Source: a virus. Taken from it: 32,223 nt of DNA. The notes under the pieces were generated by a model. It was not told where the DNA came from. It did no database searches and saw only the letters and a list, made by a program, of their open reading frames with translations. The stretch lies in the UHGV virus genome UHGV-1520234; one strand, written 5' to 3'. The translations under genes were made by a program, and so were the position numbers. Below, in pieces: positions 1 to 32,223 of the stretch (position 1 is the stretch's first letter; each line of letters opens with the position of its first letter).

Positions 1-217
1 GATAGCCTCATCAATAATAAGGCTTTATGCTAGATGCATTCCGCTTTGCGACTCAACCTTTTTCACCTAAAGGATGACAAAATCACATAAATAATTTAAA
101 AATCATAGCATTAGATTACTTAATGGTTAAATAATAGACTGCAAAACGCGACAAAACACAACATATCCAGTCACTATGAATCAACTACTTAGATGGTATT
201 AGTGACCTGTAACAGAG

Positions 218-29327: not shown

Positions 29328-31208
29328 TTAATACTCCGTCACGTTTTCCTGTCGCCACGCCTCGTCATATTCCGATTTCGGCATATTGGCGATGTAGCTA
29401 TATGGCGATCCTGATTCAAGTTGCAGGAACTGGTGCGATTGCTCGTCAAGGAACAACGGGACACCACCTTCCCAACCTTCGCCGTTACGTTGTTTTTCAA
29501 GCATCAAAACAGATGCCGGAGATGCCAGTAGCTGTTCGTCCTTCTCTGACATCTTTTCACCACTCTGAACTCTCTGTAACGCTCTCTCGCGAGCCTTGTT
29601 ACGCCAGATGATGAAAAGGTTGTCTGTCAGGTCTGTTATCGCTCCAGAGCCTTTTACGTCCATTTTCCCGGTTGGTTTTTCTTCGCTGTCTCCTTTTCGC
29701 GAGTGAGTAACGAGAATGACGTGGGAGTTTGTTTTGTTTTTGAAGTCGCAAATCGAGTCAACAAACGCCTTCTGCCCGTTATAGTCATCGTCGCCTATGC
29801 CACATTTCATCAGGCTGTCGATGATGAATAACTGGATCCCGTATCGGCGGCGAGCGTAGTCGAATATTTCGATCAGCCTGTCGGCTTTCGCCGTTCCGGT
29901 CAGGCCAAACACCCAAAGTCTTTCGTCATAAAATTTAAATGCAGAGTCAATTTCCAGCACTGGCGGAATCTTGCAGCACGTCGCCTGACGGGTAAGGCGC
30001 TTAAGGAGAATACCAGGCTTCAGCTCAAGTGACGCGATGCACGTCTTCACACCCTGACGCATTGCCTCAAGTGCCATATGCCCGACAACCTCCGTTTTTC
30101 CGTGACCGTTCACACCATTGACCAGCGTCAACTCTGCCTCACGGAACTGGAATTTATCTGCCAGAGATTCCCACGGTGGATTAAACAGATACTGCTGCTT
30201 GCCGTAGAAAGCGTTGATAGTGTCCTGGTAAAACTCTCGCGCGCTGTAGAGTTCTTCAGGATCGAAGTAGGATGCCGTGCCGATGTACTGCCAGATTTCA
30301 TCCTCGGTAACACCGTTCATCAGGCATTCGTTGATGTCTTTGTACGGCAGAGTAACAAGACGGCAACGATGTTCACCGAGTCGGCTTGCGATTTCCCTTG
30401 CGGCTTCACGACCAACATCATCAACGTCCATCGAGATGAATATTTCCTCAAACCTGTCGAGGTTGTGATACTCAAACTCAATCCACTGCTGCTTAGCGCC
30501 TTTCCCGCCACCAAACGGCACGGATAACGCCGAGATGCCGTATTGCGCATAGCTCATACAATCAATTTCGCCTTCGCAAAGTACAACCGCCCTCACGCCA
30601 GCGTCCAGAGCCTGCCATCCGAACAGACAAGGTTCGCAATCACCTTCTGCCATAATGACTTTCTTCCCGTCCGGGCGCTCAGTGCTGATTCGCTTGACCT
30701 GCAACAACTCACCATCGCGTTTGTACGGAAGCACCAGAGCATCCAGTTCTCGTTCTCCATTCCACACCTTGCCGCTGACAACCTCGTAGCGCTTTACGAC
30801 TTCTGGCGATATGCCACGCGATTGCAGGTACTCAAGATGGGATTCTGTTCTGGTAACGTAGCGGGCGATTTTCTTGCGATCAGGCCTGGAGAATTTCTTC
30901 TCACGTCTGGCATCGAAATGGTGATCGTCATCCTTGATACCGAGAAATGCTTTCGCTTCCTGCATAGCCTGATGCAGGTTAATTCCACGACATGCCATCC
31001 ACAAATCAAGCATGTCACCGCCGTCTCCCTCAGCGAAATCAGCCCATTTTTTCTTGCCGCTAAGGTTGACCTTAAGGCTGTTTCCCTTGTCACCGTTGAC
31101 GTTACCGGCAACCCACTCATGCCCCTCTTTCTTGCCGTTTGGCAACAGGTGCGGAGCCACCCTGTCAACCTGCGCCCAAAGCAGGTCACTGAGTTCACTT
31201 GGCGTCAT
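29328..31208 (-). CDS. Bifunctional DNA primase / replicative helicase (Toprim N-terminal, DnaB-like C-terminal)
   Basis: 626-aa ORF with an ATG start; central acidic Toprim-like segment (VVLCEGEIDCMSYAQ) and a C-terminal Walker A (GVNGHGKTE) with a Walker B-like LFIIDS. Confidence 0.75.
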   Translation of the reverse strand: MTPSELSDLLWAQVDRVAPHLLPNGKKEGHEWVAGNVNGDKGNSLKVNLSGKKKWADFAEGDGGDMLDLWMACRGINLHQAMQEAKAFLGIKDDDHHFDARREKKFSRPDRKKIARYVTRTESHLEYLQSRGISPEVVKRYEVVSGKVWNGERELDALVLPYKRDGELLQVKRISTERPDGKKVIMAEGDCEPCLFGWQALDAGVRAVVLCEGEIDCMSYAQYGISALSVPFGGGKGAKQQWIEFEYHNLDRFEEIFISMDVDDVGREAAREIASRLGEHRCRLVTLPYKDINECLMNGVTEDEIWQYIGTASYFDPEELYSAREFYQDTINAFYGKQQYLFNPPWESLADKFQFREAELTLVNGVNGHGKTEVVGHMALEAMRQGVKTCIASLELKPGILLKRLTRQATCCKIPPVLEIDSAFKFYDERLWVFGLTGTAKADRLIEIFDYARRRYGIQLFIIDSLMKCGIGDDDYNGQKAFVDSICDFKNKTNSHVILVTHSRKGDSEEKPTGKMDVKGSGAITDLTDNLFIIWRNKARERALQRVQSGEKMSEKDEQLLASPASVLMLEKQRNGEGWEGGVPLFLDEQSHQFLQLESGSPYSYIANMPKSEYDEAWRQENVTEY

Positions 31209-31312
31209 GATTCCCTCAGATTGAGATTTTTAAACCAGAAATCGACAAACGAAATACTTAACCAGCCGTGGTTATAACCAGCGACCAGTAGCGATTTGAT
31301 TTTTGATTTCAT
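31205..31312 (-). CDS. Small coupled ORF between O and the primase-helicase (35 aa, not in the ORF track)
   Basis: Hand translation: MKSKIKSLLVAGYNHGWLSISFVDFWFKNLNLRES. ATG sits 3 nt after the O stop and the stop TGA overlaps the primase-helicase ATG (ATGA). Confidence 0.3.
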   Translation of the reverse strand: MKSKIKSLLVAGYNHGWLSISFVDFWFKNLNLRES

Positions 31313-31315
31313 GGT

Positions 31316-32176
31316 TCACCTGTCGAAAAACACGTAGCCAGTTTTCGATACGGTGATTGCGGATGATGGTTTGGATTGTGGTTGAATGGTTTCTGGCTTT
31401 TCGTCGTTCCAGCGCTGACCGTTCAAGTAGCTCGATGGTAACAACCTGTCGAATCCGAACTGCTTACCATTCCTGCATGCGATGTCTTCTGCCAGCATCG
31501 TGGCAAACTCGCTTGCCGTACCCCTGGTAGTTTTACGCCATTCCCTGAACTGTGTTCTGAATGCCGAAGCTGCGTTTTTTTTCCCGGCTTTCCGCATGCC
31601 TGCACACCAGAATATTTCCTCGAATGCCTTGTCGGTTTCTTCGTGACGGTCAGGTGATTTTTCACACTCCGTCCGAACACTTTCGGACATAGTGTTTTTA
31701 TTATTTCTTTTTTCTTTTGTAATAGTTTCTTTTGTGTGTCCCTGTTTTGGTGACAGCGCTGTCACCGTTTTGGTGACACTTTTTGTCACCAATGCAGTGA
31801 CATTATCACCAGAGTAGTGACACCCTTCGATTTGCCATTCCTCGATGTTCTTGTTAGGCCCGATTTGCTGGCCTTCGCGAAGGATAACCTTCATCGCGAT
31901 AAGCTCATTCTTGGCCTTGTTTACCTTCTGTCTTGGCAGCCTGGTAATTTGAGCTAACTGACTATCAGAGATGCAATCCATCTTTTTACCGTAGCCGTAT
32001 GTTTTACGGCATATGGCGTGGGCAACCTTGCTCTGATTTTTCGTTAAATCTGCGCCGATAAGCTCTTCATACAGGGCATTTGCAAGACGGGTATAACCAT
32101 CTTCAACTTCTGCCACACGACGCTCCACAGGCCGTTGTGAAGGCCTTAAATGTGTTACGGTTGCAAGATTACTCAT
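31316..32176 (-). CDS. O: Replication initiator, lambda O-like N-terminal domain
   Basis: 286-aa ORF with an ATG start and GGAGAAAGG RBS; the N-terminal ~110 aa align with lambda O as recalled (DGYxRLxNxLxExxxGADLTKxQxKV...KTYGxxKxMDxIxDSQLxxITxLP...GPNKNIxEW); iterons lie within the coding sequence. Confidence 0.75.
   Translation of the reverse strand: MSNLATVTHLRPSQRPVERRVAEVEDGYTRLANALYEELIGADLTKNQSKVAHAICRKTYGYGKKMDCISDSQLAQITRLPRQKVNKAKNELIAMKVILREGQQIGPNKNIEEWQIEGCHYSGDNVTALVTKSVTKTVTALSPKQGHTKETITKEKRNNKNTMSESVRTECEKSPDRHEETDKAFEEIFWCAGMRKAGKKNAASAFRTQFREWRKTTRGTASEFATMLAEDIACRNGKQFGFDRLLPSSYLNGQRWNDEKPETIQPQSKPSSAITVSKTGYVFFDR
31694..31735. other. AT-rich putative DNA-unwinding region of the origin
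   Basis: AT-rich stretch (tttttattatttcttttttcttttgtaatagtttcttttg) immediately on the O-downstream side of the iterons, the same order as in the lambda ori. Confidence 0.5.
31735..31825. repeat. Replication origin iterons inside the O gene
   Basis: Four spaced inverted-repeat units built on GTGACA/TGTCAC half-sites: perfect 18-bp palindrome ggtgacagcgctgtcacc (31749-31766), ggtgacactttttgtcacc (31772-31790), gtgacattatcacc (31797-31810), gtgacac (31818-31824). Confidence 0.6.
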
Positions 32177-32223
32177 GACCTTTCTCCTTCTGCATCAGCT
32201 TCACTTTTTCCAACTCAGCCCGG

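Follow-up and report, generated by a model that had tools for sequence, protein, structure and literature searches.

Type-specific iterons that lie inside gene O and co-vary with the N-terminal domain of the initiator have been classical for the lambdoid phages since about 1980, and the principle is reflected in the records of lambda, phi80, P22, and ES18. In the ES18 record, the iterons are annotated as rep_origin. Plasmid iteron origins, by comparison, are composed of direct repeats that are bound by initiator monomers and are located outside the rep gene. Work on lambda and Stx phages revealed that O dimers bind iterons of 19 bp, which are imperfect inverted repeats, and that plasmids are no longer established when the iterons carry synonymous mutations (PMC7466680).

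The window analyzed here is the whole 32,223-nt stretch of the virus genome UHGV-1520234. Its segment 31671-31822 is very probably the replication origin of a lambdoid phage or prophage of Escherichia coli, built like the lambda origin and contained in the linker-coding part of an O-like initiator gene. This gene (31316-32176, minus strand) encodes a protein of 286 aa with a Phage_rep_O domain at aa 20-114, the origin-bearing linker, and an ES18-type C-terminal domain (phrog_33384). The match to Phage_rep_O (PF04492) covers positions 1-95 of the 95 in the profile and scores 127.7 bits, the curated cut-off being 28.7 (E = 2.5e-37), and the PHROGs match is designated as "replication initiation O-like". 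In gene sense, the origin consists of four 19-bp dyad iterons, a 47-bp AT-rich stretch, and a short GC-rich palindrome, in this order. The iterons and the AT-rich stretch correspond to gene nt 355-487 (aa 119-163), directly past the Phage_rep_O domain; aa 119-147 are encoded by the iterons and aa 147-163 by the AT-rich stretch, both lying between the N-terminal and C-terminal domains. Four features of a lambda-type origin in a Phage_rep_O gene are found here: the position, the iteron array, the AT-rich region, and the palindrome on the far side. The sequence anatomy, the homology of position, the conservation at the DNA level, and the covariation with the protein are directly seen.

Two other assignments were considered and rejected. 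A plasmid iteron origin of the RepA, pi, or TrfA type is ruled out, because the units are dyad-symmetric and located inside the gene, in contrast to direct repeats outside rep; the likeness to plasmid iteron origins is functional only. The locus does not belong to the rep-lambda specificity either (lambda, 434, 21, ES18, and Stx phages, with ATCCCTC/GAGGGAT), as its half-site is TGTCACC/GGTGACA.

Of the 22 copies of the hexamer GTGACA/TGTCAC in the 32.2-kb window, six are clustered within 31750-31822. The Poisson probability for at least six half-sites in one 73-nt window is ~9e-9 after correction for the number of windows. The pattern TGTCACC-N5-GGTGACA with at most two mismatches has four matches in 31737-31822. 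When three mismatches are allowed, there are 8 matches in the window against 1.2 expected, and none of 100 shuffles reached 8. The four iterons are all on the minus strand and are given here in gene sense. ITN1 (31804-31822, TGTCACTACTCTGGTGATA) is promoter-proximal and has two mismatches to the consensus, ITN2 (31784-31802, TGTCACTGCATTGGTGACA) has one mismatch, ITN3 (31760-31778, TGTCACCAAAACGGTGACA) is a perfect match, and ITN4 (31737-31755, TGTCACCAAAACAGGGACA) has two mismatches. They start at gene nt 355, 375, 399, and 422, and thus the spacing is 20/24/23, or about two helical turns. The distal arm of ITN4, AGGGACA, continues into the conserved CACAAAAGA block, like that of lambda ITN4. 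Far from this array, a near-iteron (TTTCACCTAAAGGATGACA, two mismatches) was recognized at window positions 61-79; it is isolated, and the number of such matches is around the chance level. It adjoins the stretch of the lowest GC content in the whole window (~15% GC), and positions 61-135 are probably an intergenic or prophage-end region.

The AT-rich region (31690-31736, minus strand; CACAAAAGAAACTATTACAAAAGAAAAAAGAAATAATAAAAACACTA in gene sense) is presumed to be the DNA-unwinding element. Its GC content is 19% over 47 bp, compared with 49.7% for the window, and it ranks 26th lowest among 32,177 windows of the same size (the lowest 0.1%). The first ~35 bp are homologous to the AT-rich region of lambda and are kept in all specificity classes. 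Two nucleotides past the AT-rich region, the GC-rich palindrome GTCCGAAAGTGTTCGGAC is found at 31671-31688 on the minus strand. A palindrome to the right of the AT-rich region is a part of the lambda origin, and 31671-31688 occupies the same relative position. It is identical in ES18, and CCCCC..GGGGG palindromes are seen at the same position with other types of the C-terminal module. This palindrome lies outside the interval delimited by the first-pass annotation, and the element reaches ~20 bp further.

The lambda origin and that of the window are both located where a Phage_rep_O gene codes for the linker, and they have four 19-bp dyad iterons with an A-rich 5-nt centre. The annotated ITN1-4 of lambda start at locus positions 735, 755, 779, and 802, with the same 20/24/23 spacing as in the window. 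Both arrays abut a homologous CACAAAAGA(A/C)ACTATTACAAAAGAAAA block, into which both ITN4s run; the homologous AT-rich block is CACAAAAGAxACTATTACAAAAGAAAA, and a palindrome lies beyond it. The differences from lambda are found in the half-site (ATCCCTC in lambda, TGTCACC in the window), in the N-terminal domain, which is ~52% identical and has another stretch at residues 79-87, in the unrelated C-terminal domain, and in the partner, which is a phage primase/helicase in the window in place of P and the host DnaB. The first-pass annotation had described an origin of the lambda layout inside an O-like initiator gene, with an AT-rich stretch of ~40 bp after the repeats. All of these points hold: the gene product is a Phage_rep_O protein, the iterons, the AT-rich block, and their geometry match those of lambda, and the rep_origin of ES18 is annotated at the same position.

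The initiator of ES18 (gp59, encoded by gene 59) is almost identical to the window initiator in the C-terminal half. ES18 also shares the same small ORF, the same primase/helicase (gp61), the same palindrome, and the same layout. In contrast, its N-terminal domain is of the lambda type (~50% identical to that of the window initiator), and lambda-type iterons, TCCCTC-N5-GAGGGA, are present at the same place. The crossover between ES18 and the window lies in ITN4 and the AT-rich block. PhiR12 phages represent the opposite combination; their N-terminal half and iterons match the window at 99.8%, but the sequence then continues with a C-terminus of the lambda type, P, and ren. Here the crossover, at ~31704, falls into the conserved part with which the AT-rich block begins. 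ES18 can be considered as a natural module-swap control. The origins of P22 (gene 18), phi80 (gp15 sites), HK97/mEp213, mEpX1, and phiEt88 belong to the same family and have the same overall layout, while each has its own half-site and another 79-87 stretch. The 7-N5-7 iteron seen in the window is found in all of them except phi80.

A block of ~45 bp at 31704-31749, comprising the distal arm of ITN4 and the start of the AT-rich region, is common to all specificity classes and all types of the C-terminal module. The homology breakpoints fall at its edges, at 31749 for ES18 and at ~31704 for the PhiR12 phages. This block looks like a recombination linker for reassorting N-terminal/iteron and C-terminal/helicase modules.

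By homology with lambda O, dimers of the N-terminal Phage_rep_O domain would bind the four iterons, with one half-site per monomer, and would fold them into an O-some-like complex. This complex would destabilize the adjoining AT-rich DNA, and the C-terminal domain of the initiator would then recruit the helicase to the opened AT-rich DNA. The helicase is expected to be the Toprim/DnaB-like primase-helicase of the phage itself, whose gene lies just downstream (29328-31208, minus strand; 626 aa; Toprim and DnaB-like/AAA_25), and not the combination of P and host DnaB used by lambda. Homology and covariation support this function, and we infer from them that the initiator binds the iterons, opens the AT-rich DNA, and recruits the helicase. 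At least four C-terminal modules are found joined to the same N-terminal/iteron module, and each of them co-occurs with one partner: the ES18-type with a primase/helicase (32 loci), the P22 gp18-type with a DnaB-like helicase (14 loci), the Klebsiella-type with a DnaB-like helicase (9 loci), and the lambda-type with P (8 loci). By analogy with the O-P interaction of lambda, recruitment of the phage primase-helicase is most likely the role of the C-terminal domain.

The half-sites alternate in orientation, and the array can thus be parsed in two ways, head-to-head or tail-to-tail. The four inverted repeats recognized in the first-pass annotation are real and are located where it placed them, but their register has to be corrected, because it had taken the perfect 18-bp palindrome GGTGACAGCGCTGTCACC (31749-31766) as an iteron. 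Under that register, the initiator would bind GGTGACA-N4/5-TGTCACC in the tail-to-tail orientation. The perfection of the 18-mer agrees with this, and the alternation of half-sites generates dyads under either parse. However, the tail-to-tail spacers are 1, 5, and 4 nt long and variable in sequence among relatives, the centre of the 18-mer being GCGC, TAGC, GGGT, GGGG, or GCCC, whereas the head-to-head parse gives four 19-mers whose centre is always 5 nt and A-rich. The tail-to-tail parse also yields just three full units, and the experimentally defined 19-bp units of lambda match the head-to-head register position for position. A tail-to-tail binding unit is therefore highly improbable. Because the tail-to-tail spacers vary in both length and sequence, the 18-bp palindrome is best regarded as the junction between ITN3 and ITN4, not as a binding unit, and the unit is taken to be head-to-head TGTCACC-N5-GGTGACA. 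A different question is whether the repeats are a mere by-product of a V-T-rich linker peptide, with no function at the DNA level. ITN2, read as (N)V-T-A-L-V-T, and ITN3, read as (S)V-T-K-T-V-T, do encode V-T-x-x-V-T, and to this extent the earlier description of the repeats as V-T-rich was right. It does not apply to ITN1 (C-H-Y-S-G-D) or ITN4 (L-S-P-K-Q-G-H), and the hexamer is thus read in three frames (C-H, V-T, and L-S-P). Relatives were collected from IMG/VR by similarity of the N-terminal domain alone (80 loci, 63-99% identity), and TGTCAC-type repeats are present in the corresponding segment of all 80. Exactly four iterons at the 20/24/23 spacing are found in 59 of the 60 distinct full-length segments, and the remaining one has six. 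TGTCAC is essentially invariant among these relatives, while the 5-nt centres and the gaps between iterons vary. Third codon positions have a nucleotide diversity of 0.133 in the half-sites, against 0.480 in the conserved N-terminal domain (66 distinct sequences), and changes of the half-site follow those of the DNA-binding domain and not those of the linker or the C-terminus. A peptide by-product is thus effectively refuted, with a very remote chance of being correct. The use of three frames together with the low third-position diversity indicates that the constraint is essentially on DNA; the dual constraint on DNA and protein proposed at first is weak, and the V-T peptide appears to be a consequence of the DNA repeats and not a co-constraint.

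Binding of the initiator to head-to-head iterons could still serve mainly control, such as copy number, autoregulation, titration, or exclusion of related phages, with replication starting elsewhere. The phage has a T7 gp4-like primase/helicase, not P and DnaB, and such enzymes can use origins of other kinds. Iterons of lambda placed on a plasmid inhibit rep-lambda phages, possibly through titration of O (PMC3349717). Nevertheless, the iterons, the AT-rich block, and the palindrome are kept whichever helicase module follows, and a site used purely for titration would hardly be expected to retain the AT-rich block across all specificity classes. A role limited to control is thus considered improbable. 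It is even harder to regard the repeats as hairpins acting as RNA or DNA structures, for example as an antisense terminator, in place of protein-binding sites, and this possibility is close to negligible. A consensus scan detected terminator-like stems followed by a T-run on the plus strand at 31748-31767 and 31760-31778, and the single-strand folding z-score is -6.4. Any array of dyad repeats with A-tracts between them will show such features, and the terminator-like matches were rejected as by-products of this kind. No promoter is predicted here for antisense transcription, the search against Rfam returned sub-threshold chance matches only, with no family match, and the loop-forming spacers are not conserved.

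The reading as a lambda-type origin raises the question of specificity. The repeated 7-mer was extracted from ~240 viral loci in a class-agnostic manner, and a one-to-one relation between the half-site and residues 79-87 of the initiator was revealed for these loci and the named phages. LPRQKVN accompanies TGTCAC in 70 distinct loci, IHHTHVC accompanies ATTAGC in 48, LSRQNVN accompanies TGTCTC in 6, ISR[PS]KAN accompanies TGTTAC in 5, and ISREKVN accompanies TGTGAC in 1. Among the named phages, the half-site is ATCCCTC in lambda and ES18, TTCCCG in phi80 (annotated in its record as gp15 binding sites), TTTACC in P22 and PhiR30_1, ATTAGC in mEp213 (HK97-type), TGTCTC in mEpX1, and TGTTAC in phiEt88 and Midgardsormr38; the hexamers of the last three phages are one base off the TGTCAC of the window. 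Residues 79-87 are RLPRQKVNK in the window initiator with the half-site TGTCACC, compared with KLPVKRCNE in lambda with ATCCCTC. Since both the half-site and this stretch differ from those of lambda, the origin should fire only with its own class of initiator. The distinct initiator-iteron specificity suggested in the first-pass annotation is thereby supported, as changes in the half-site are accompanied by changes in the N-terminal domain systematically across the classes.

A test for class-specific residues detected no single residue unique to the TGTCAC class, and specificity seems to be distributed along the 79-87 stretch, which may represent the recognition helix. The profile search against PDB for a solved homolog of the initiator returned insignificant matches only (E about 0.5), and the single-sequence AlphaFold model of the initiator, with pLDDT 44, is unusable. 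Because the sequences are related, shared ancestry confounds their covariation. A generalization with about equal chances of being right or wrong is that the O-type initiators comprise at least eight mutually orthogonal origin specificities, mostly in one rigid 7-N5-7 geometry, with the half-site set by residues 79-87; the annotated sites of phi80 are shorter than 7-N5-7. Two IMG/VR loci (L087 and L089) constitute a divergent sub-branch of the TGTCAC class, with about six tightly packed iterons, GTCACCA(C/T)GGTAGTGAC, located ~60-230 nt past the RKTYG motif, and with an altered helix region, RLPRQKVNAVKKELLS. A truncated locus (L088) has similar iterons and the helix region RLPRQKVNTAKNELIA. 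The six-iteron arrays of L087 and L089 parallel the six-iteron origins of Stx phages.

In the window initiator, codon 68 (31973-31975, minus strand) encodes Cys in the context KKMDCISDS. Arg is present at this position in PhiR12_1 and in all 80 of the same-class IMG/VR relatives and is near-universal across the classes, with Trp in P22. Cys68 could be a neutral private change or could indicate an impaired initiator in this prophage.

The last 3 kb of the window encode the initiator, the primase-helicase, and NinB, all on the minus strand, as are all long ORFs of the window (1-32223). Between the initiator and the primase/helicase, a 35-aa ORF (MKSKIKSLLVAGYNHGWLSISFVDFWFKNLNLRES) is present at 31205-31312 on the minus strand, and its stop codon overlaps the start codon of the primase. 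It matches phrog_21848 (4e-26, unknown function), occupies the position of ES18 gp60, and travels with the module of the ES18-type C-terminus and primase/helicase. A small DUF2740/orf48-like gene (32169-32223) directly precedes the initiator gene. It is labelled as "tail protein" in several RefSeq phage records (Midgardsormr38, P22, and mEp043). For an early-operon gene of 48 aa, this name is implausible, and it looks like an annotation error that has propagated between records. The structural half of the window is similar to vB_EcoM-689R2 and to phages of the SEN34 type, the SEN34 record having an annotated tail sheath, while the early and nin/lysis half is similar to Sf101 and mEp043, and the early region is ~99% identical to mEp043, Sf101, SEN22, and vB_EcoP-720R6. 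The window thus combines two lambdoid lineages in a mosaic.

The same origin, at 99% identity or more, was found in mEp043, Sf101, SEN22, vB_EcoP-720R6, and PhiR12_1-5. At this threshold, 13 phage records contain it, as do 175 of the 5426 complete E. coli genomes (~3%). The stringent exact pattern was detected in 20 species, mostly from Enterobacterales, and the genera bearing it include Pantoea, Xenorhabdus, Serratia, Arsenophonus, Providencia, and Erwinia. No origin is annotated in the records that were inspected (mEp043, Sf101, and E. coli 7/2), nor is it discussed in the Sf101 paper, the lambdoid Chi paper, or the co-transfer paper. The searchable literature contained no mention of the TGTCAC half-site as a phage iteron and no experiment on this iteron class; the comparative papers on phi80 and phage 82 from 1979-81 were outside the reach of this search. 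Phage 82 may belong to the TGTCAC class, and no record of it was among the matches at 99% or more. This kind of origin is well understood, and only the TGTCACC type of repeat appears to be undescribed.

The understanding of how such origins work is unchanged. The analysis supplies a base-precise annotation of the origin, which is missing from the inspected phage and prophage records. It also extends, by one specificity class, the classic rule for lambdoid phages that the iterons move together with the N-terminal domain of their initiator. Owing to this rule, several lambdoid prophages can reside side by side in one cell, and none of them fires or titrates the origin of another. The closely related classes are a ready data set on how the DNA-binding domain reads its site. 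If the half-site is indeed set by residues 79-87 across mutually orthogonal specificities, the single-base neighbours (TGTTAC, TGTCTC, and TGTGAC) would make it possible to read the recognition code and to engineer orthogonal replicons.
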